Below are positions 1 through 45,265 of a DNA stretch of 64,000 bases, in pieces. The notes below the pieces were generated by a model, which was not told the origin of the DNA, made no database searches, and was given only the letters and a program-made list of their open reading frames with translations. Origin of the DNA: an uncultured Planctomycetales bacterium (GTDB lineage Bacteria > Omnitrophota > Gorgyraeia > Zapsychrales > GWA2-47-8); the NCBI GenBank assembly GCA_964499685.1, contig CAZCLW010000003.1:16042-80041 (forward strand), written 5' to 3'. A program made the translations under genes and the position numbers. The stretch's first letter is position 1. The number at the start of each line of letters is the position of its first letter.

Positions 1-681
1 ATGAACGCTGTACCAAACCAAAATAACAACGAGGAAATGCCAGCCTTAAAAATCCTCAAGCAGATAGATAGCGGTGAGTTGATCCCAAAGGAATTAACCG
101 TGCAACAGCGCAGGCAGTGTGTGGAGGTCTTGAAGTTAGAAGGACGGTCTTATGCAGCAATTGCAAAGATGCTCGACTGTTCGGAAAAGACGATTCAAAG
201 AGATTGGGATGAAATTTGCAAAAAGAATGCACAGAAACCGTCCCCCGAGCTTGCCTTAAAATTGATCGCTCAGTTGATTATGAAGGCAAACGCGAAAGAA
301 GATTATTTAACCAGATTGGCTAATTCGAAGGACGGTTCCATGCAGGAGAAAGCGCAGGCAATGTATTATGCCAGCAAAGTCCTGCTTGAAACAATTCAGC
401 TTCTGCAAAGCATGGGGTACGTTCCGACACAGCCGGCACAGATTGTTGGGGACATCTATCATCACACGGATGAGGATATCGCTCTTGATGATTTGAAAAA
501 AGAAGTGGTCAAGATTGAGAAGATCATTAGCGAAGAAGGTATTGATAACCCGGCTATCAAGCAAAAATTAGAGGCGCTCAAAAATAAAATCGAACAAGGT
601 GAAATTAACCAAGGGATAACTGACTTGAAGAAGGAAGTAAGCGAGCAAGTTAAAATCCCGGAGGAGGATTCAAATGAATAA
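1..681 (+). CDS. terS: phage terminase small subunit-like protein (HTH N-terminus, coiled-coil C-terminus); may be 5'-truncated by the window edge
   Basis: ORF overlaps (8 nt) and immediately precedes a terminase large subunit. HTH-like segment RSYAAIAKMLDCSEKTIQRDW. Charged coiled-coil C-terminal half typical of TerS oligomerisation regions. Confidence 0.5.
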   Translation: MNAVPNQNNNEEMPALKILKQIDSGELIPKELTVQQRRQCVEVLKLEGRSYAAIAKMLDCSEKTIQRDWDEICKKNAQKPSPELALKLIAQLIMKANAKEDYLTRLANSKDGSMQEKAQAMYYASKVLLETIQLLQSMGYVPTQPAQIVGDIYHHTDEDIALDDLKKEVVKIEKIISEEGIDNPAIKQKLEALKNKIEQGEINQGITDLKKEVSEQVKIPEEDSNE

Positions 682-35933: not shown

Positions 35934-37169
35934 ATGCACCTTTTATTTTATGTCCTGGTTAGCACGGTAGTTTTTACGCTCCTCATCATTCTGCTTGTGG
36001 CCATCCTGTCTTTCATCCGGGCCAAGGTCGTTTCCACCAAGGATTGCAAGATCATTATTAACGACGACCCGGAACCGCTCCATGTGAAGGCGGGCAGCAA
36101 TTTGCTGTTCAGTCTGGCCGACAGCAAGATATTCCTGCCCTCGGCGTGCGGCGGCGGCGGAAGCTGTGCCATGTGCAAATGCCAGGTCTTGGAGGGCGGC
36201 GGGAGTATTTTGCCGACGGAGACAGGTCAAATTAATCGTCGCATGCAAAAGGAACATTACCGCCTAGCCTGCCAGGTGAAGGTGCGTAACGACATGAAGA
36301 TCCGCATTCCCGACGAGGTCTTTCATATCAAGAAATTTGACTGCAAGGTGCGGTCCAACCGCAATGTGGCCACTTTCATCAAGGAGTTGATTCTCGAACT
36401 GCCTGCGAACGAACCCCTGGATTTCAAACCAGGCGGGTATATCCAGATCGACATTCCCGAATACAAAGACTTAAGTTTCAAAAATTTTAGCATCGAAAAG
36501 GAATATCACCCGGATTGGGACAAGTTCAAGTTGTGGGACCTTAAAGCAACCAACGAAGAGGAGATTTTCCGGGCCTATTCCATGGCCAATCATCCGGGCG
36601 AAAAAGGCGTTGTCATGCTCAATGTGCGTATTGCCACACCTCCGCCGAATGACATGTCGCTCCCTCCAGGCAAGGCCTCTTCCTATATTTTTAATCTAAA
36701 GCCGGGCGATAAAGTCACGATCAGCGGTCCATACGGCGAATTCTTTATCAAGGACACCAAGCGCGAGATGATCTATATCGGCGGCGGTGCCGGTATGGCG
36801 CCTTTACGCAGTCATTTGTTCCATTTGTTCCACACCCTTCAGAACCGAGACCGCAAGGTCAGTTATTGGTATGGGGCCCGTTCCAAACGGGAAATGTTTT
36901 ATACAGAAGATTTTGAGAATATCGAGAAGAACTTTTCCAATTTCAAATACAATGTGGCCCTTTCCGCGGCCCTTCCGGAAGATAATTGGAAAGGCATGAC
37001 CGGCTTCATCCACCAGGCCTTGTATGACAACTATCTGAAAAATCATCCCGAACCGGAAGAGATCGAATATTACCTGTGCGGCCCGCCCATGATGATCGCG
37101 GCCGTGCAGAAGATGCTCGATTCCCTGGGTGTGCCCAAGGAAATGATCGCCTTCGATTCATTCGGTTGA
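35934..37169 (+). CDS. nqrF: Na+-NQR subunit F (2Fe-2S ferredoxin + FAD/NADH reductase)
   Basis: N-terminal TM. Ferredoxin cysteines [22 protein letters not shown]-binding motif. [12 protein letters not shown]-binding motif. Confidence 0.9.
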
Positions 37170-37175
37170 TACAGA

Positions 37176-37213
37176 AGAAAACCCTGCACTTAAGGTGCGG
37201 GGTTTTCTTGTTT
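37176..37213. terminator. intrinsic terminator after nqrF (gaaaaCCCTGCAC-ttaag-GTGCGGGGttttc + T-rich), potentially bidirectional
   Basis: 8-bp GC stem with one G·U, extended by A:U pairs, U-tract on both strands. Begins 7 nt after the nqrF stop. Confidence 0.65.
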
Positions 37214-37378
37214 AGGAGAGTTGGCGTCGCATTCCGCGGCCTTTTGAGGGTCGTTCTTGCACAGGCACTCCGGGCCCAAGGAACATCCGCGCTTGAGGAC
37301 TTTTTTGGTGAGGACAAAGCCGATGCCCATCAAGAGAAAGCATCCGGCCAAAATAAGAATGGCGAAGAGTGTATTCAT
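37190..37378 (-). CDS. candidate small Cys-rich membrane protein, NqrM/FeoB-associated-like (unannotated micro-ORF; uncertain)
   Basis: 62-aa ORF from the ATG at 37378. TM helix NTLFAILILAGCFLLMGIGFVL followed by KRGCSLGPECLCKNDPQKAAEC (4 Cys). No obvious SD. Convergent with nqrF. Confidence 0.3.
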   Translation of the reverse strand: MNTLFAILILAGCFLLMGIGFVLTKKVLKRGCSLGPECLCKNDPQKAAECDANSPKQENPAP

Positions 37379-37407
37379 AATTTTAGTATAGGCCAATTTA
37401 AATCAAA

Positions 37408-38673
37408 ATGCAACAGAGCACAAAGTCCACTACATCCTCCCGCCTTTCGAACAATAAGAAACTGCAGATCAGCCAGTCGGAAGAGCTCAAGATCCTGCGC
37501 AAGGTCGTGGATATCACAAGCTCCGCCCTGGAATTGAGCCTTGTCCTGAAGGAAGTGGTCAAGATCGTGACCGAAATGACCTCGGCCGACTCCGTCTTTA
37601 TCTATCTTTTCGACGAGAACCGCGAGCATCTGGTCCTGATGGCCTCCAAAACCCCGCATAAAGAACAGTTGGGGAAAGTGCATTTGAACGTCGGGGAAGG
37701 TATCACGGGATGGGTCGCCAAGGAAAGTAAACCCGTTGCCATCGCGCAGAACGCGTACAGGGACTCGCGCTTTAAGAATTTTGATGTCCTGCCCGAAGAT
37801 AAATACGAAGCGTTTTTGTCGGTTCCCATTATCTACCAGAACCGTGCCATCGGTGTCATCAACGTCCAGCACCGCCGGCCGCATGCCTATGCGGCGAACA
37901 CCGTCAGCCTGATCGTGACGATCGCCAAACAGGTCGGCGGCGTCATCGAACACGCCCAGCTCTTCGAACAGATGAAGAAAAAGGCGACCCAGTTCGACAG
38001 TCTGGTCAAGGTCAGCCAGTCCATCACCTCCGAAGATTATTTGGACGAGATCTTGAGTCTCATCGTCGTGGTCACAGCTGAGATGCTCAATTCCAAGATA
38101 TGCTCCATCATGCTTTTGGACGAAAAAGGCGAAGAACTGGCCATCAAGGCGACCCAAAGCCTGAGCGTGGATTACCGTAAGAAGCCAAATGTCAAAGTGG
38201 ATGCGAGCTTAAGCGGAGAGGTCGTCAAAACCAAGAAGCCCATGGCGGTCTATGATGTCCGGGAGGAGAAGCGCTATTTTTACCGGGATTTGGCCATCAA
38301 GGAGGGATTGACCTCCATGCTGGCCGTTCCCATGATTGTGAAAGAAAAGGCCGTGGGCATCATCAATGTGTACACGCAAAAACCGCACCGCTTTGCGGAA
38401 GATGAGATCAATGTCCTGCAAATGGTAGCCAACCAGGCGGCGGTCGCGGTCCAGAACACGAAATTGATGGAAGAGGCCCTGAAGGCCAAAGAATCTCTGG
38501 AGACACGCAAGGTGGTCGAGCGGGCCAAAGGGATCCTGATGCGGATGAATAATCTGAGCGAAGAAGCGGCCTACAAGGTCATCCACCGAAAAAGCATGGA
38601 TTCCTCCCGTTCCATGAAAGAAATTGCTGAATCCATCATTCTTTTGGATGAACTGCAGAAGGACAAGAAATAA
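37408..38673 (+). CDS. GAF-GAF-ANTAR RNA-binding antitermination regulator
   Basis: Two GAF-like modules (…VFIYLFDE…LVLMASK…GEGITGWVAKESKPVAI… and …ICSIMLLDEKGEELAIKA…GEVVKTKKPMAVYDV…). C-terminal ANTAR-like helix bundle LETRKVVERAKGILMRMNNLSEEAAYKVIHRKSMDSSRSMKEIAESII. Confidence 0.7.
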   Translation: MQQSTKSTTSSRLSNNKKLQISQSEELKILRKVVDITSSALELSLVLKEVVKIVTEMTSADSVFIYLFDENREHLVLMASKTPHKEQLGKVHLNVGEGITGWVAKESKPVAIAQNAYRDSRFKNFDVLPEDKYEAFLSVPIIYQNRAIGVINVQHRRPHAYAANTVSLIVTIAKQVGGVIEHAQLFEQMKKKATQFDSLVKVSQSITSEDYLDEILSLIVVVTAEMLNSKICSIMLLDEKGEELAIKATQSLSVDYRKKPNVKVDASLSGEVVKTKKPMAVYDVREEKRYFYRDLAIKEGLTSMLAVPMIVKEKAVGIINVYTQKPHRFAEDEINVLQMVANQAAVAVQNTKLMEEALKAKESLETRKVVERAKGILMRMNNLSEEAAYKVIHRKSMDSSRSMKEIAESIILLDELQKDKK

Positions 38674-38719
38674 TTTCTCGACGGGAAAAAGTCTTCCGCT
38701 GTTTCGTTAAATTTTTTTC

Positions 38720-38748
38720 TTGACAAAAAACGCGGTGTGGCGTATATT
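38720..38748 (+). promoter_or_regulatory. sigma70-like promoter TTGACA-N17-TATATT upstream of the amt1 leader
   Basis: Consensus -35 and near-consensus -10 with 17-nt spacer read directly. Confidence 0.5.
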
Positions 38749-38786
38749 TTGGTTGCTTAAGTCAATGAAGATTTAAGGCCTTATCC

Positions 38787-38800
38787 GGACAGAGAAGTCC
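38787..38800 (+). promoter_or_regulatory. hexaloop hairpin GGAC-AGAGAA-GTCC (A1/G4 loop; candidate ANTAR recognition element) overlapping the 5' arm of terminator 1
   Basis: Seen directly. The 3' arm GTCC shares nucleotides with the CCCGC arm of the downstream terminator. Confidence 0.35.
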
Positions 38801-38830
38801 CGCCGTCAACGACGCGGGATTTTTTATTTT
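38799..38830 (+). terminator. leader terminator 1 (CCCGCcGTC-aac-GACGCGGG + ATTTTTTATTTT)
   Basis: 8-bp GC-rich stem with 1-nt bulge followed by a U-tract. Confidence 0.55.
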
Positions 38831-38857
38831 GTACGGAAATATTTTTGGGCAAAGACG

Positions 38858-38907
38858 TCCGATGATTTTCTGAAAAGGCAGTCAGAAAGGTCATCGGATT
38901 TTTTTAT
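38858..38907 (+). terminator. leader terminator 2 (TCCGATGATTTTCTGA-aaaggcag-TCAGAAAGGTCATCGGA + TTTTTTTAT)
   Basis: About 15-bp stem (one bulge/G·U) followed by 7 U. Confidence 0.65.
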
Positions 38908-38923
38908 GGGATTCGGGCGCTGA

Positions 38924-38970
38924 GGCCCTCTTGAACAGAGCAAGGACGTTCAAGGGGGCCTTTTGTGTTT
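38924..38970 (+). terminator. leader terminator 3 (GGCCCTCTTGAAC-agagcaaggac-GTTCAAGGGGGCC + TTTTGTGTTT)
   Basis: 13-bp stem with a single G·U followed by a U-rich tract. About 110 nt upstream of amt1. Confidence 0.55.
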
Positions 38971-39082
38971 AAGTTTGCCTGAGGGAGACAGGGGAGGTGA
39001 ATATGAACTGACAACACATCTAGCGATTAACCACGAAGTGGAAGTGGTCTTACTTATATCAAAAAATGGAGGATACAAAACA

Positions 39083-40423
39083 ATGTTTAAACAATTTGGC
39101 AAAAAATTCTTAAGTATATTCATGGGCGTGTTGTTCGCGACCCTGGCGTTCAGCCTGCCGGCCATGGCGGCCGATGTTACGGCGGCCGATGCCATGTTCA
39201 CGGTGAACAATACGTGGATGATGGTTTCAACGTTCCTGGTCTTTATCATGCATTTGGGTTTCGCGACCCTGGAATCGGGGCTGACCCGGGCCAAAAACAC
39301 CACGAACATTCTTTTTAAGAATGTCTCGATCGTGGCGATCGGCCTTTTGACCTATGCGGTCTTGGGCTTCAACCTCATGTATCCGGGTGATTCCTGGATC
39401 TTCGGTAAATGGTTTGGGTTCGGCGGCTTCGGAGTTTCTTCACCGGAAGGTGCCGCAGGGCTCATTGAATATGCCGACGGCAAATACACCTACTGGACGG
39501 ATTTTCTTTTCCAGGCGATGTTCGCGGCCACCGCGGCCACGATCGTCTCAGGGGCCGTTGCCGAAAGGATCAAGTTACACAGCTTTTTATTTTTCTCCAT
39601 TTTCTTTGTCGGGCTGGTCTATCCCTTTATCGGAAGCTGGAAATGGGGTGCCGGTTGGCTCAATGACAAAGGGTTCTATGATTTCGCCGGTTCGACCCTC
39701 GTCCACTCTGTGGGCGGTTGGGGCGCCTTGGCCGGAGCGCTTATCCTGGGCCCGCGTCTGGGCAAATACAATAAAGGCAGTGTCAAAGCCATTCCCGGGC
39801 ACAATATGCCTTTGGCAACCATCGGTGTTTTTCTCCTATGGTTGGGATGGTTTGGTTTCAACGGCGGGTCGGTGCTTTCAGCTGATCCCGGCGCTGTTTC
39901 CTACGTTTTGGTGACCACCTCTCTGGCAGCGGCCGCCGGTATCGTCGGCGCCATGCTGGCCTCGGAGCTTTATTTAAAGAAACCGGACCTATCTATGGTC
40001 TTAAACGGTTCTCTGGCCGGTTTGGTAGGCATCACGGCCGGAGCTGACACTGTTTCGGTCCTTTCCGCGATTATCATAGGCCTGATCGCCGGTATTTTGG
40101 TCGTTTTGGCGGTCGTTTTCATTGATTCTAAACTGAAGATCGACGATCCCGTGGGGGCCATCTCGGTCCACTTGGTCTGCGGCATCTGGGGCACATTGGC
40201 CGTCGGGATCTTCAGCACCAAGCCAGAGCACACGTTCTGGATCCAGTTGTTGGGCGTCATTGCGTGCGGACTTATGGCGTTTCTTTCGGCTTTTCTCATC
40301 TTCAGCGTGGTCAAGGCCCTGATGGGCATGCGCGTTCCGGAAGAAGAAGAGCTGAAGGGACTGGATATTGGGGAACACGGTATGGAGGCATACGAAGGTT
40401 TCCAGATCTTTACGACCCAATAA
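39083..40423 (+). CDS. amt: ammonium transporter (Amt/MEP/Rh family) with cleavable signal peptide
   Basis: RBS GGAGGA. Signal peptide …SLPAMAADV. Conserved Amt motifs (…D.AGG.VVH..GG..AL.GA…; FGFNGGS). Confidence 0.9.
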   Translation: MFKQFGKKFLSIFMGVLFATLAFSLPAMAADVTAADAMFTVNNTWMMVSTFLVFIMHLGFATLESGLTRAKNTTNILFKNVSIVAIGLLTYAVLGFNLMYPGDSWIFGKWFGFGGFGVSSPEGAAGLIEYADGKYTYWTDFLFQAMFAATAATIVSGAVAERIKLHSFLFFSIFFVGLVYPFIGSWKWGAGWLNDKGFYDFAGSTLVHSVGGWGALAGALILGPRLGKYNKGSVKAIPGHNMPLATIGVFLLWLGWFGFNGGSVLSADPGAVSYVLVTTSLAAAAGIVGAMLASELYLKKPDLSMVLNGSLAGLVGITAGADTVSVLSAIIIGLIAGILVVLAVVFIDSKLKIDDPVGAISVHLVCGIWGTLAVGIFSTKPEHTFWIQLLGVIACGLMAFLSAFLIFSVVKALMGMRVPEEEELKGLDIGEHGMEAYEGFQIFTTQ

Positions 40424-40453
40424 TCCTTATCAATCAAAAGGGAGGTTATAAAA

Positions 40454-40795
40454 ATGAAATATATTGTTGCCATGATCCAGCCTCACAAGCTGCCTGATGT
40501 CAAAAAGGCTTTGTTCGAGGCCGATGTCCATAAGATGACCGTGACCAACGTCGTGGGTTGCGGGCAACAGCGCGGTTTTAGTGAGACCTACCGCGGTGTT
40601 GTACATGAAGTGAACCTGTTAAAGAAGGTCCGTATTGAAATTGGCGTCAATGACGAGTTCGTGAAGCCGACCATCCGTGCCATTATCAAAGGTGCCAAAA
40701 CGGGAAATATCGGCGATGGCAAGATCTTTGTTTTTGATCTTCCCCAATGTATCCGTATCCGCACCGAAGAAGAGGGCGGCAAGGCCATTGGTTAA
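40454..40795 (+). CDS. glnK: PII nitrogen regulatory protein, divergent T-loop
   Basis: 112-aa PII fold ([13 protein letters not shown]…DGKIFVFDL…IRIRT). T-loop reads [14 protein letters not shown] instead of the canonical G(R/H)GRQKG…YRG. Confidence 0.85.
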
Positions 40796-40814
40796 GTAAG
40801 CTGTGGTTGTCCAC

Positions 40815-40901
40815 GAGGGAGAAGGTGGTTAAGGCTAAAAGCAGCCTCTCTTCTCCCTCCTTAAAATATCAGCGCGATGATTTTTAAGGAAAGAGGCTGC
40901 T
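40815..40901 (+). promoter_or_regulatory. two mutually exclusive 10-bp helices (GAGGGAGAAG/CTTCTCCCTC and AGCAGCCTCT/AGAGGCTGCT) in the glnK1-amt2 spacer
   Basis: Perfect complementarities read directly. Each helix sequesters one arm of the other, like an attenuator switch. Confidence 0.4.
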
Positions 40902-41060
40902 CAATTTATAAGAAAGGCAGCGCTTACTATGCACTCCCTCTGGGGGCTGTATGATTCTTTGGGAAAAGCTACATGGGTGTTCATCATCTCGATGTTCGTC
41001 TTCGAGGTTTGCCTGAGCATTTATGGGCTGATGTCCTTTTAGTCGTCGCTTTAAAAAACC

Positions 41061-41089
41061 TTGACATCAAAATGGGATGATTGTATACT
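41061..41089 (+). promoter_or_regulatory. sigma70-like promoter TTGACA-N17-TATACT upstream of amt2
   Basis: Read directly. Lies 84 nt upstream of a strong leader terminator. Confidence 0.5.
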
Positions 41090-41172
41090 CACCTCAATTC
41101 TAAAGGCACTGGCGTCTTTAGAAAAAAATCGGTCGCACGCATGCATAGCCGGCCGATCAAGGGCATGGAAGT

Positions 41173-41222
41173 CCTCAAGAGACCAAAACAAGAGAAGGTC
41201 TCGTTTGAGGGCTTTTTTTTTG
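41173..41222 (+). terminator. leader terminator before amt2 (CCTCAAGAGACC-aaaacaagagaa-GGTCTCgtTTGAGG + GC + T9)
   Basis: 12-bp stem with 2-nt bulge followed by nine consecutive T. Located 80 nt upstream of the amt2 start. Confidence 0.65.
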
Positions 41223-41302
41223 GACAACGGCGTCCGTAACATGCACAGGTAAAGATCTCGTTGCAGAAGCAGTAATAACACAATGTGAAGGGAGAACACA
41301 TT

Positions 41303-42538
41303 ATGGACATGATCAATGCAGGTGACACAGCGTGGGTTTTGATTTCCTCAGCCCTTGTCATGCTTATGACGCCGGGCCTGGCCTTCTTTTACGGAGGCAT
41401 GGTAAGACGTAAAAATATTTTAGGCGTTTTAATGCAATGTTTTATCGTTCTTTGTGCGTTAAGTCTTCATTGGGTCTTGATCGGCTATAGCCTTTCCTTC
41501 AGCTCAGGGAATCCTTTTATCGGCGGATTGCAATGGGCCGGCCTCAACGGTGTCGGTCAAGAGCCTAATCCCGATTATGCCGCGACGATCCCGCATCAGG
41601 CCTTTATGATCTTTCAGGCTATGTTTGCCGTCATTACCCCGGCTTTGATCATCGGCGCCTTTGCCGAGCGCATGAAATTTTCAGCTTTTCTGTTATTCAC
41701 CCTTTTATGGGCCACATTCGTGTACGCGCCCGTGTGCCACATGGTCTGGGGTCTCGGCGGATTTATCCGCAGCATGGGAGCCTTGGATTTTGCCGGAGGC
41801 ACGGTCGTTCATATCAATGCCGGTATCGCGGCTTTGCTGACCGCTATGATGATCGGCAAAAGGACCGGCTATGCGAATAAACCGACGCCTTTGCATAATA
41901 TCCCGTTCACGGTATTGGGTGCGGCGCTGCTCTGGTTCGGCTGGTTTGGTTTCAATGCCGGAAGCGCTTTGGGTGCCGGCGGTCTGGCCGCCGCGGCTTT
42001 TGTCACGACCAACACGGCCGCCGCCGCTGCAGGTCTTACATGGGCGATTTTAGAATGGAAAATGACCGGTAAACCGACGATGTTCGGAGCGGTGACCGGC
42101 GCTGTTGCGGGTCTGGTTGCCATCACACCGGCAGCCGGTTTTGTTACGCCCGTATCGGCCATTATCATCGGTGTTGTCGTCAGCCTGCTATGTTTCTTTA
42201 TGGTCGGTATTGTCAAACCGAAGTTGGGCTACGATGATTCTTTGGATGCCTTCGGCGTCCATGGTATCGGCGGGATCTGGGGGGCTCTGGCCACGGGGTT
42301 GTTCGCGACGACCTCGGTCAATTCGGCCGGTGCCGACGGGCTTTTCTATGGGAATCCCGGATTATTGTTTATTCAGTTGAAAGCCGTTCTGGTGACCATT
42401 ATTTACTGCCTTATTGTGACAGCCGTCATTTACAAAATTGTCGATATGATCATCGGCATGAGGGTCTCACAAGAAGATGAGGCGATCGGTCTGGATTTGA
42501 CCCAGCACCATGAACGCGCCTACACCATGCTGGAATAA
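41303..42538 (+). CDS. amt: ammonium transporter (Amt family), no signal peptide
   Basis: RBS AAGGGAGAA 7 nt upstream of the ATG at 41303 (the ATG at 41285 lies in the RBS). Conserved Amt motifs (FGFNAGSAL, VVHINAGIAAL). Confidence 0.9.
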   Translation: MDMINAGDTAWVLISSALVMLMTPGLAFFYGGMVRRKNILGVLMQCFIVLCALSLHWVLIGYSLSFSSGNPFIGGLQWAGLNGVGQEPNPDYAATIPHQAFMIFQAMFAVITPALIIGAFAERMKFSAFLLFTLLWATFVYAPVCHMVWGLGGFIRSMGALDFAGGTVVHINAGIAALLTAMMIGKRTGYANKPTPLHNIPFTVLGAALLWFGWFGFNAGSALGAGGLAAAAFVTTNTAAAAAGLTWAILEWKMTGKPTMFGAVTGAVAGLVAITPAAGFVTPVSAIIIGVVVSLLCFFMVGIVKPKLGYDDSLDAFGVHGIGGIWGALATGLFATTSVNSAGADGLFYGNPGLLFIQLKAVLVTIIYCLIVTAVIYKIVDMIIGMRVSQEDEAIGLDLTQHHERAYTMLE

Positions 42539-42575
42539 CCTAACGAGAAAACAATAATTCAAGGGAGAAGAAGAT

Positions 42576-42917
42576 ATGAAATTAATCATTGCGATCATTC
42601 AGCCTCATAGATTAGAGGAAGTAAAAAAGGCCTTGTATGAGGCCGACATTAATTTGATCACGGTCAGCGAGGTCTTGGGCCACGGCCGTCAAAAAGGCAT
42701 CGATGAGTTCTACCGCGGTTCCAAGGAAACCGGCAATCTCCTGCGCAAGATAAGGCTGGAGATCGCCGTTAACGAGAACTTCGTGGACCCCACGATCAAG
42801 GCCATCATCAAGGGCGCCCGTACTGGAAAGATCGGTGATGGGAAGATCTTTGTCGTTGATCTGCCGCGATGCATCCGCATTCGTACAGGAGACGAGGGCT
42901 CACAGGCCATCGGTTAA
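42576..42917 (+). CDS. glnK: PII nitrogen regulatory protein (canonical T-loop)
   Basis: [16 protein letters not shown]-loop with Tyr. [16 protein letters not shown]. Confidence 0.9.
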
Positions 42918-42952
42918 AAGCGTTCGGAAATGGGGGTTTTCCGGATAAATTT

Positions 42953-42990
42953 CCTTCCCCGGGCGTGCCCGGGGAAGGGGATTTATTTGG
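42953..42990 (+). terminator. intrinsic terminator after amt2-glnK2 (CCTTCCCCGGG-cgtg-CCCGGGGAAGG + T-rich)
   Basis: Perfect 11-bp GC stem, tetraloop, followed by GATTTATTTGG. Confidence 0.65.
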
Positions 42991-42991
42991 G

Positions 42992-43020
42992 TTGACGCTT
43001 AGAGGAAAGATTGCTAGAAT
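42992..43020 (+). promoter_or_regulatory. sigma70-like promoter TTGACG-N17-TAGAAT for glnN, embedded in the inverted repeat TTAGAGG…CCTCTAA
   Basis: Hexamers read directly. 7-bp IR arms at 42999-43005 and 43023-43029 bracket the spacer and -10. Confidence 0.45.
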
Positions 43021-43090
43021 TGCCTCTAAATCTAACCCGCTGAAAATAAATTAGTTTAAACCCTAATAAATAATTGAGGAGAGAAGGAAT

Positions 43091-45265
43091 ATGCGACGAT
43101 TATCAGAAGTAAACGCAGCAGCTAATTCTGTCTCAGATGCACAAAAAACTGCCGCAGAAGGTGGAAATGGAGGGCTTGCAAACGTGAAAGGTGCTCAATC
43201 GATCATCGATCTTTACGGTCAAAATGTGTTCAGTCTCAAAGTCATGCGCAATTATCTTTCGGAAAAGGCCTATAAATCCATCAGCACGACGATAAAAGAA
43301 GGCGGCCGGCTCGATCCGGAGATCGCCGACGAAGTCGCCGATGCGATGAAGAACTGGGCTGTTTCCAAAGGCGCCACGCACTTTACTCATTGGTTCCAGC
43401 CGTTGACCGGCACCACGGCCGAAAAACATGATTCTTTTTTGTCTCCCGATGGTGAAGGCGGGGCCATTCTGCATTTTTCCGGAAAAGAATTGATCCAGGG
43501 TGAGCCGGATGCTTCCAGCTTCCCCTCAGGCGGCTTGCGTGCGACTTTTGAAGCCCGCGGTTATACAGCCTGGGACCCGACCAGCCCGGCTTTCATCAAG
43601 GAAGGGCCGGAAGGGGCAACGCTGTGTATCCCGACGGTTTTCTGCGGTTATCACGGTGAAGCGTTGGACAAAAAGACCCCGCTTTTGCGTTCCATGGCGG
43701 CCTTGTCCAAGCAGGTTTGCCGTTTGGGAAGACTCTTCGGCATCGACACCAAAGGGAAAAGGGCCTACGCCACCTTAGGCGGCGAGCAGGAATATTTCCT
43801 GATCGACAAGAATTACTATCTGCAGAGAATGGACCTTATTCAGACCGGACGCACTTTGTTCGGCCGTAAACCCGCCAAACATCAGCAGATGGAAGACCAT
43901 TATTTCGGCGCTATCAAGAGCCGTATCATTGCTTACATGGAAGACCTGGACCGCGAACTCTGGAAACTGGGCGTTCCGGACAAGACCCGTCATAACGAGG
44001 TCAGCCCGGCTCAATATGAGGTCGCTCCGGTCTTCGAAGAGCTGAATATCGCCGTTGACCACAACCAGATCACCATGGAGCGCATGCGCGCTGTGGCTGA
44101 GAAGCACGGTTTGGTCTGCTTATTGCACGAAAAACCGTTCGCCGGCGTCAATGGTTCGGGTAAGCATAACAACTGGGCCATCGTCGGACCCGATGGAAAG
44201 AACTGGTTCTCGCCGGGCAAGAACCCGCATGAAAATGCGAAATTTTTGACCATGCTTTGCGCGACCATTCAGGCCGTGGATGAGTATGCCGCTATCCTGC
44301 GCGCGTCCGTTGCCTCGGCCGGTAATGATCACCGTCTGGGCGCCAACGAAGCTCCGCCCGCCATCATCTCCATCTTCCTGGGTGAGCAGTTGAGCAATAT
44401 CATCGAGCAGATCGAAAAAGGCGGCGCCAAGAGCTCGACCTCCGGTGGTACGATCGAGATTGGGGTCGATTCTCTGCCTAAACTGCCGCGCGATGCCACC
44501 GACCGTAACAGAACTTCGCCGTTTGCTTTCACCGGGGCCAAGTTCGAATTCCGCGCCGTGGGTTCCAACATGAGCCTGGCCGGTCCGAACGTTGTCCTGA
44601 ACACGATCATGGCCGATGCCCTGGATGATATCTGCGCCAAGTTGGAAGAGGCCCAAAAATCCAAGAAGGATTTCAACGCCTCCTTGCAGAAGATCCTTCA
44701 GGAAGTCATTAAAAAGCATAAGCGCGTTCTCTATAACGGAGACAACTATACTCCGGAATGGCATGCCGAAGCCAAAAAGCGCGGCCTGCCCAATCTTAAG
44801 ACCACACCGGAAGCGCTTGCTGTGCTCAAAGAAGAAAAGACCATCAAGCTCTTTGAAAAGCACGGTGTTTTGACCAAAAAAGAGCTGCTTTCCCGTTATA
44901 ACATCTACATGCATACCTACGACACCATCGTTCAGCTGGAAGGCAATTGCGCTCTGCAGATCGCCAGAACGCAGGTTATCCCGGCTGCTTTGGCGTATCA
45001 GCAGGAACTGGCCGAGACGATCAAGATCGTCGGTACAGCCGGTAAAACGGTCCAGGCTAAGAAACTGCTTAAAAGAGTTTCGGGCTACACCGAAGATGGC
45101 CTGGCCGCAAGCGATCAGCTAGAAACAGCGGTAGACAAGCATGATTCCGCCAAGACTTTGGCGGCCATGGTCAAGCTCCGCGAAGCTGTCGACGAGCTTG
45201 AGGCTATTGTTCCCGAACAAAAGTGGCCGTTGGCCTCTTATGCTGAAATGTTATCTGTTTTTTAA
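43091..45265 (+). CDS. glnN: glutamine synthetase type III
   Basis: 724 aa. N-terminal GSIII-specific domain (…[20 protein letters not shown]…) and catalytic domain. Collinear with Bacteroides-type GlnN. Confidence 0.9.

Follow-up and report, generated by a model that had tools for sequence, protein, structure and literature searches.

Stacked hairpin-terminator modules ahead of an ammonium transporter operon in Omnitrophota are consistent with control by a neighbouring GAF-GAF-ANTAR protein

Why should a promoter aimed at an ammonium transporter gene be followed, before that gene is reached, by three transcription terminators in a row? The question is raised by a 64,000-nucleotide (nt) stretch of DNA (the window; contig CAZCLW010000003.1, positions 16,042 to 80,041, assembly GCA_964499685.1) from an uncultured bacterium of the phylum Omnitrophota. 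Here the leader in question (leader 1) lies between a 421-amino-acid (aa) open reading frame (ORF; 37408-38673) encoding a GAF-GAF-ANTAR protein, by its Pfam domains a presumed antiterminator, and amt1 (39083-40423, ATG at 39083), encoding an ammonium transporter of the marine subtype (Pfam Ammonium_transp, E = 1.3e-118; TIGR03644). Coordinates are those of the window, and features are on the + strand unless stated otherwise. The answer that we consider probable, with good confidence, is transcription attenuation: an ANTAR antiterminator would decide whether polymerase gets through this leader, with the adjacent GAF-GAF-ANTAR protein as its predicted reader.

A sigma-70-type promoter (TTGACA-17-TATATT; 38720-38748, predicted start near 38755) matches the consensus at 11 of 12 positions, is the best consensus match within 37500-40500 and lies exactly where an earlier note on this DNA, made from the letters alone, had placed it. 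The three tandem intrinsic terminators reported in that note were all recovered by an RNAfold-based scan: T1 (38798-38830; stem 38798-38819, U-tract 38820-38830, UUUUUUAUUUU, U6AU4; -12.8 kcal/mol), T2 (38858-38905; stem 38858-38898, U7 at 38899-38905; -21.4 kcal/mol) and T3 (38924-38970; 13-bp stem 38924-38960, U-rich tail 38961-38970, UUUUGUGUUU, U4GUGU3; -25.3 kcal/mol). Each is predicted to be an intrinsic terminator, with a G+C-rich stem-loop running directly into a U-tract. The array stands 112 nt ahead of amt1 and shares its orientation, with no promoter intervening. Folding of the leader, proposed earlier as a check, gave structures far more stable than those of shuffled sequence, both for the leader as a whole (z = -6.4 against shuffles) and for each module of hairpin plus terminator (z = -4.3 to -4.5, about -4.4). 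Applied to the whole window, the RNAfold-based scan is too permissive within genes for a density statistic to be drawn from it. A simple terminator scan did not list T1, T2 or T3, which fall outside the shapes it accepts (bulge in the T1 stem, internal loop in T2, 11-nt loop in T3), and flagged one of the small hairpins (P2b, below) as a terminator-like site. An Rfam search of 36000-44000 (E <= 10) gave no relevant match and placed no family on the hairpins; matches set aside as due to chance were microRNA (miRNA) models and Thr_leader, which fell on ordinary terminators, and Glutamine-II, which lay within the regulator gene but on the wrong strand.

The small hairpins carry the signature of ANTAR substrates, defined as dual hexaloop hairpins with A at loop position 1 (A1) and G at position 4 (G4) (Ramesh 2012, PMC3369931). 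The hairpin already recognised beside T1, GGAC-AGAGAA-GUCC with A1 and G4 (P2a; 38787-38800, 4 bp, predicted by folding; 16.9 bits with the covariance model described below), is present as described, but the accompanying statement that it was the only clean one, with no canonical pair, did not hold: leader 1 has five. P1 (CUUAAGUC-AAUGAA-GAUUUAAG; 38756-38777, 8 bp, -7.1 kcal/mol) lies 9 nt upstream of P2a, and P1, this linker and P2a together form the minimum-free-energy fold of the nascent RNA. P2b (UUGGGC-AAAGAC-GUCCGA; 38845-38862, -6.4 kcal/mol; 20.6 bits, E = 0.02) overlaps T2 with its 3′ arm, and P2c (GGGC-GCUGAG-GCCC; 38915-38928, -8.4 kcal/mol; 18.1 bits) overlaps the base of the T3 5′ arm. 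A second hairpin of module 3, GAGC-AAGGAC-GUUC (38938-38951, also found by folding), follows P2c after 9 nt and draws, in another register, on the top of the T3 3′ arm; nascent RNA of 38911-38953 folds into these two hexaloop hairpins. The loops AAUGAA, AGAGAA, AAAGAC and AAGGAC all have A1 and G4, and that of P2c has G1 and G4. Modules 1 and 3 thus each contain two stem-loops of at least 3 bp with 6-nt loops, separated by a 9-nt linker that is inside the 5-12 nt range of the eut system, and module 2 contains a single hexaloop hairpin.

The arrangement of hairpins and terminators is mutually exclusive, as the earlier note had proposed for T1. The 3′ arm of P2a and the 5′ arm of T1 share 3-4 nt (38797/8-38800), and overlaps of 3-5 nt between a hexaloop hairpin and a terminator 5′ arm are found at T1, T2, T3 and the terminator ahead of amt2 (below). 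Folding with and without the terminator 3′ arm switches the structure, giving the hairpins when this arm is absent and the terminators when it is present. The terminators, at -13 to -25 kcal/mol, are much more stable than the small hairpins, at -3 to -8 kcal/mol, and the default state would therefore be termination, with a protein needed for read-through.

Within the window the motif is confined to leaders of amt genes. The pattern GGRCANNGNNGYCC has four matches in 64 kb, all on the + strand and all inside two amt leaders, against an expected count of 0.49, and none of 100 shuffles reached four. A covariance model was built from 105 sites of other genomes, with the window excluded, and used to search both strands of the window with filters off; its six best matches (41157, 38843, 38911, 38783, 38934 and 41218) are again all in the two amt leaders.

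The second of these leaders precedes amt2 (41303-42538; AmtB type, Pfam), whose ATG at 41303 (MDMIN...) is set as in L081, one of the related loci described below. It follows amt1 and a P-II (GlnK-like) gene of the amt1 operon (40454-40795; Pfam P-II, E = 4.5e-27), and a further P-II gene (42576-42917; Pfam) completes the amt2 operon, so that the gene order after leader 1 is amt1, P-II, amt2, P-II. The amt2 leader repeats the design of leader 1: a promoter (TTGACA-17-TATACT; 41061-41089, identified by sequence), a hairpin P1′ with A1 and G4 (UUCUAAAGGC-ACUGGC-GUCUUUAGAA; 41098-41123, -11 kcal/mol, z = -4.8), an inserted 8-bp hairpin predicted by folding (AUCGGUCG...CGGCCGAU; 41128-41157) and a hairpin P2′ (AGGGC-AUGGAA-GUCCU; 41160-41175), which is the best match of the covariance model in the window (23.4 bits, E = 0.004) and overlaps a U9 terminator (41171-41221; stem 41171-41212, U9 at 41213-41221; RNAfold-based scan, -21.2 kcal/mol). 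The P1′-P2′ linker of 36 nt is non-canonical and holds the stable inserted hairpin, which might draw P1′ and P2′ together. Directly after the U9, 67 nt before the amt2 start codon, lies the fourth exact motif match, GGAC-AACGGC-GTCC (41222-41235). No terminator goes with it, and it may be the remains of a module or a site acting at the level of translation.

The same modules recur in related genomes of the phylum. Comparison was made with 80 Omnitrophota species genomes carrying an orthologous regulator (loci labelled L001 etc.); the best relatives of the regulator are 68-81% identical, all from metagenome-assembled genomes labelled Candidatus Omnitrophota or automatically labelled ‘Planctomycetales’. 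In 43 of the 80, amt/P-II genes lie downstream of the regulator gene, mostly within about 250-900 nt and otherwise up to about 2.3 kb. A strict search of these loci and the window for G[GA][GA]C-N6-G[CT][CT]C, with the loop unconstrained and sites kept if an overlapping terminator immediately follows, returned 115 sites on the strand of the genes against 2 on the other. All 115 have G at loop position 4, while position 1 is A in 99 and G in 14, and position 5 is A in 96; matching stems without a terminator have no comparable loop bias. With a relaxed definition, at least one module is found in 42 of 45 amt leaders and in none of their 45 reverse complements. A TTGACA-16..18-TATAnT promoter is present in 43 of the 45 orthologous leaders, and in these amt leaders the first C-[AG]NNGNN-G hairpin mostly starts 6-27 nt past the -10 element. 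In leader-to-leader BLAST comparisons the sole match was L081 (85 nt; regulator 84% identical), in which P1 reads CTTAAGCC-AATGAT-GGCTTGAG, with a compensatory U-A to C-G change relative to the window. Promoter, hairpin and terminator are kept although the leaders are too diverged for BLAST, and the motif has therefore been retained while the remaining leader turns over. In an alignment of related loci the terminator 5′ arm past the hairpin is often GUCC-UCUU, with AAGAGG in the 3′ arm, so that conservation at the base of the terminator extends to sequence and is not one of structure only.

These counts bear on whether T1-T3 are ordinary unregulated terminators, either a fail-safe end of the regulator gene or an insulator, next to which the hexaloop hairpins are incidental. 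The terminator-like site of the regulator gene itself is weak (5-bp stem, 38682-38698), so T1-T3 would also stop transcripts coming from that gene. However, they follow an 11/12 promoter aimed at amt1 and, left unregulated, would silence an intact amt-glnK operon; in other species 115 terminators are overlapped by such a hairpin, always with G4 and with a strand bias of 115:2; and the motif pattern is absent from the window outside the amt leaders. We regard this explanation as extremely improbable.

The depth of the array in leader 1 is at the upper end for the lineage and is not unique. By the strict pattern, 53 arrays are single, 22 double and 6 triple, and L006 and L011 each have five modules in two promoter units. 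The earlier remark that three stacked terminators are unusual is thus right only in part; stacking as such recurs in the lineage, and paired ANTAR matches were already listed in Ramesh 2012 (Table S2). In relatives the modules also precede genes for glutamine synthetase type I (L010) and type III (L014, L023, L025, L048), NirB-like reductase genes (L021, L039) and a porin-like gene, and the module-bearing genes appear, on sequence, to constitute a nitrogen regulon.

What lies downstream of the arrays also bears on a second alternative, that the main product of the region is one or more small RNAs ending at T1, T2 and T3 and acting in trans, for example as a decoy sequestering the ANTAR protein. 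A consensus promoter with a terminator about 65-75 nt further on must yield abundant short RNA with two ANTAR-type hexaloops, and a precedent exists in EutX/Rli55, which sequesters EutV (cited in Walshe 2022, PMC8934654). Against it, the array lies 112 nt before amt1 with no other promoter between; wherever the sequence reaches far enough, the arrays of relatives precede an ORF (amt, glutamine synthetase, nirB-like or small proteins); and there is no sign of a target in trans. Promoter-attenuator units lacking a gene were sought among the relatives, and the apparent gaps in L003, L006, L011, L040, L047 and others hold small ORFs (DUF2934 protein, small hydrophobic peptides). The suggestion in the earlier note that a small RNA is encoded here is therefore unsupported as a primary function, and an RNA acting mainly in trans seems to us very improbable. 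Short terminated transcripts are an expected by-product of attenuation, and a decoy role would be conceivable only as an added effect of these by-products.

A side observation concerns the composition of these loci. A gene for a DUF2934 protein (about 71 aa, Pfam E = 3e-11) is found between regulator and amt in L023, L036, L040, L047, L049, L053, L055 and L070, and in at least L040 and L047 it comes after a first promoter-attenuator unit.

The adjacent ANTAR gene, of which the earlier note made no use, is the strongest contextual support for an ANTAR-dependent switch. The regulator has two Pfam GAF domains and an ANTAR domain at residues 360-411 (E = 1.9e-19; 69.6 bits, Pfam cut-off 27.3), and no other ANTAR gene is present in the 64-kb window. 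This domain aligns with those of EutV (6wsh/6ww6, E = 5e-10), Rv1626 and NasR (E range 5e-10 to 3e-7), and the helix preceding it aligns with the coiled-coil region of EutV. In EutV the flipped-out G4 is held by Arg, Lys and Tyr (Walshe 2022, PMC8934654); all three are kept at the aligned positions here, in ...LETRKVVERAKGIL... and ...EEAAYKVI... (the PDB chain numbering of EutV seems to be offset by 2 from that of Walshe 2022). With the canonical pair at T1, the hairpins at T2 and T3, the adjacent ANTAR gene and the recurrence in orthologous leaders, the original reading of the T1 hairpin as an ANTAR substrate is supported, and more strongly than the evidence then at hand allowed one to see.

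The attenuators could nevertheless be real and have a different reader: an ANTAR protein encoded elsewhere, another RNA-binding protein, or the RNA itself sensing a metabolite directly. No more than 64 kb of the genome is in view, the closeness of the regulator gene is circumstantial evidence, and GnfR of Geobacter is not encoded beside its targets (PMC2995071). On the other side, the regulator and amt genes have stayed neighbours in about half of the 80 genomes, and most of the remaining loci that reach far enough have modules further downstream. In L054 (632-681) and L075 (574-619) the GAF-GAF-ANTAR gene has a hairpin-terminator module in front of it, suggestive of positive autoregulation in those two genomes; in the window no module is found before the regulator gene (37408-38673). 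Hairpins of 14 nt are too small for a ligand pocket, and Rfam gave no riboswitch match. We consider a different reader very unlikely, and the adjacent protein remains the preferred candidate.

The GAF domains give a hint of the signal. GAF1 (residues 25-192) matches the N-terminal GAF of PtsP/EI-Ntr (profile positions 2-166; NCBIfam E = 5.7e-44) and, in the PDB, 3ci6 (E = 2.5e-23, 33% identity over 160 aa) and also 3trc, far above other GAF structures. GAF2 (residues 195-385) matches the N-terminal GAF of NifA (profile positions 3-192; E = 4.6e-27). The regulator thus fuses an EI-Ntr (PtsP)-like and a NifA-like GAF, two different nitrogen-status sensor modules, to an RNA-binding output. Because the GAF of EI-Ntr binds glutamine (PMC4848567) and that of NifA binds 2-oxoglutarate in A. 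vinelandii (PMC8219145), we propose, with moderate confidence only, that the regulator may sense nitrogen status directly.

From the elements that sequence and comparison support (promoter, hairpins, terminators, their mutual exclusivity, the conserved motif and the neighbouring ANTAR gene), we infer protein binding, read-through, a multiplicative effect and a ligand as follows. A strong, probably constitutive sigma-70-type promoter would initiate about 1 nt before P1. By default T1, T2 and T3 would each form and stop RNA polymerase, leaving the amt1-glnK operon off and yielding only short RNAs of roughly 70-80, 150 and 210 nt. When the GAF-GAF-ANTAR protein is active, presumably under nitrogen limitation, its ANTAR dimer would bind the hexaloops (consensus C-[A]NNG[A]N-G) and stabilise P2a, P2b and P2c; each stabilised hairpin would hold the GUCC/GCCC that otherwise forms the bottom 3-5 bp of the terminator stem beside the U-tract, so that termination would fail and polymerase would read through. 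The protein would have to win three times in series, and read-through would be the product of three probabilities, so that the basal level would be very low and the response to regulator activity steeper. The signal would most likely be low glutamine and/or high 2-oxoglutarate, read by both GAF domains and possibly together with P-II.

Several points weigh against this mechanism. Modules 2 and 3 lack the canonical P1-linker-P2 pair, and for EutV both hairpins and the 5-12 nt linker are needed in vivo (PMC3369931). A single hexaloop is, however, the minimal binding unit, with successive binding proposed (Walshe 2022, PMC8934654), and a single-hexaloop module 2 is therefore plausible. In P2c the first loop base is G instead of A, and module 3 has a weak second hairpin (-3.1 kcal/mol; model 13.6 bits, E = 0.79). 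Covariation in a 4-bp stem is limited and weakly informative, since the stem sequence is itself conserved, with no variation at two of the four core pairs, and the aligned sites had been chosen for pairing. The type III glutamine synthetase gene of the window (43091-45265), expected as a further target by analogy with L014, L023, L025 and L048, has no hairpin-terminator module in this window and was set aside as such. The GAF matches are domain-level only, far below whole-protein cut-offs, which makes the proposed ligand a guess, and the whole case for this organism is built from its sequence.

Among the closest characterised systems is EutV/EutW of the Enterococcus faecalis eut locus (PMC3369931, PMC8934654), where two A1/G4 hexaloop hairpins are likewise followed by a terminator whose 5′ arm overlaps the 3′ side of the second hairpin; the linker length, the aligned ANTAR domain and the conserved Arg, Lys and Tyr noted above add to the likeness. 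EutV has a phosphorylated receiver domain, whereas the protein here is a one-component regulator with two GAF domains; the targets are ethanolamine genes in the former and ammonium transporters in the latter; and four eut terminators are spread along the operon, as against three stacked in one leader here, two of them without a canonical P1. GnfR of Geobacter (PMC2995071) is an ANTAR protein that acts on nitrogen-gene leaders with sites before the terminators of nifH, glnK and amtB. Its site CAGGCAANGGCGCC reads GGC-AANGGC-GCC, a G/C stem with an A1, G4 hexaloop at the 5′ edge of the terminator, and closely resembles the GGGC-ANNGAN-GUCC of the present leaders. As a response regulator, GnfR depends on the kinase GnfK for activation; it is transcribed from RpoN promoters, and its gene does not neighbour its targets. 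The present locus differs in having a sigma-70-like promoter, a GAF-linked regulator next door and stacked modules.

The target type and the tandem layout also have precedent. ANTAR sites were predicted before amt/P-II operons in Desulfotomaculum, Geobacter, Mahella and Clostridium thermocellum (Ramesh 2012, Table S2), including paired matches before one operon in D. acetoxidans and D. carboxydivorans (34402/34596, 1043787/1043969 and 813893/813992). These pairs share ammonium transporter and P-II targets with the locus described here and, at about 100-250 nt apart, amount to tandem ANTAR attenuators. They are computational matches in Firmicutes and Deltaproteobacteria, and the regulator, where noted, is called a response regulator; the tandem layout is not discussed there, and triple arrays, Omnitrophota and GAF-GAF-ANTAR proteins are not covered. 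In the library searched, neither tandem ANTAR terminators nor ANTAR proteins of Omnitrophota were the subject of any paper, the only tandem precedent being this supplementary table. NasR/nasF of Klebsiella and AmiR/amiE of Pseudomonas are one-component or protein-partnered ANTAR antiterminators of nitrogen-source genes, again with the regulator gene beside the target leader and a hexaloop hairpin ahead of the terminator, but their sensors are a NIT domain (nitrate) or the partner AmiC (amide) and each has a single terminator. Serial terminator switches in one leader are familiar from tandem riboswitches and attenuators, where control becomes multiplicative, with low leak and a steeper response; in tandem riboswitches the RNA aptamers sense metabolites directly, whereas here a protein would read small hairpins.

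The ANTAR mechanism, the amt/P-II target type and, through a computational precedent, the tandem layout are thus already known, and the locus is a clear example of a known nitrogen switch, with no new mechanism. Four elements alone are new: the phylum, the GAF-GAF-ANTAR one-component regulator beside its targets, the frequency and depth of stacking, and the mix of canonical and single-hexaloop modules. GAF-linked ANTAR proteins had no characterised member as of Ramesh 2012 (PMC3369931) and have none in the table of characterised antiterminators of a 2025 review, and the locus provides a concrete, testable regulator-target pair for this class. It indicates that ammonium uptake in Omnitrophota is controlled past transcription initiation, from consensus sigma-70-type promoters, and relatives extend the same control to glutamine synthetase and nitrite-reductase-like genes. 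Stacked single-hexaloop modules lend themselves to asking whether one hexaloop is enough for antitermination and how serial attenuators affect leak and steepness, and the compact motif GGRC-ANNGAN-GYCC plus terminator is usable for annotating nitrogen regulons in metagenome-assembled Omnitrophota genomes.

The terminators of relatives offer material for a more speculative extension. In 26 of the 115 ANTAR-associated terminators of related loci (e.g. L006 5282-5313, L016, L072, L076) the terminator apex is itself a hexaloop, with G4 in 23 of the 26 (p = 1.4e-11), A5 in 20 and a closing C-G pair in 17. In several arrays such an apex hexaloop lies about 10 nt upstream of the hairpin of the next module, with the U-tract between them as linker. 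Stacked modules might then act as a hand-over relay, each overridden terminator offering a ‘P1’ to the next module and one ANTAR dimer being passed down the leader, and with EI-Ntr-like and NifA-like GAF domains possibly integrating glutamine and 2-oxoglutarate the result would be a one-protein, nearly digital nitrogen switch in place of NtrBC/sigma-54 logic in Omnitrophota. Such a relay would be consistent with the successive-binding model (Walshe 2022, PMC8934654); we put it forward tentatively and think it rather unlikely.

Some minor features of the locus remain. Between T3 and amt1 there is a three-codon mini-ORF (ATG AAC TGA; 39003-39011) 5 nt past a GGAGG (38993-38997), which chance could explain. 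Upstream of the AmtB-type gene, a hydrophobic ORF of 37-39 aa (...CLSIYGL..F*) is conserved between the window (40929-41042) and L081 (4063-4182); the window copy has no Pfam match and may encode an amt-linked small membrane protein. Upstream of the regulator gene, a 62-aa Cys-rich ORF on the minus strand (37190-37378) was considered as NqrM, a guess without Pfam support that was not retained; this ORF and an NqrF-like gene (35934-37169) converge on a bidirectional terminator (37175-37210) that lies downstream of the latter and terminates both.

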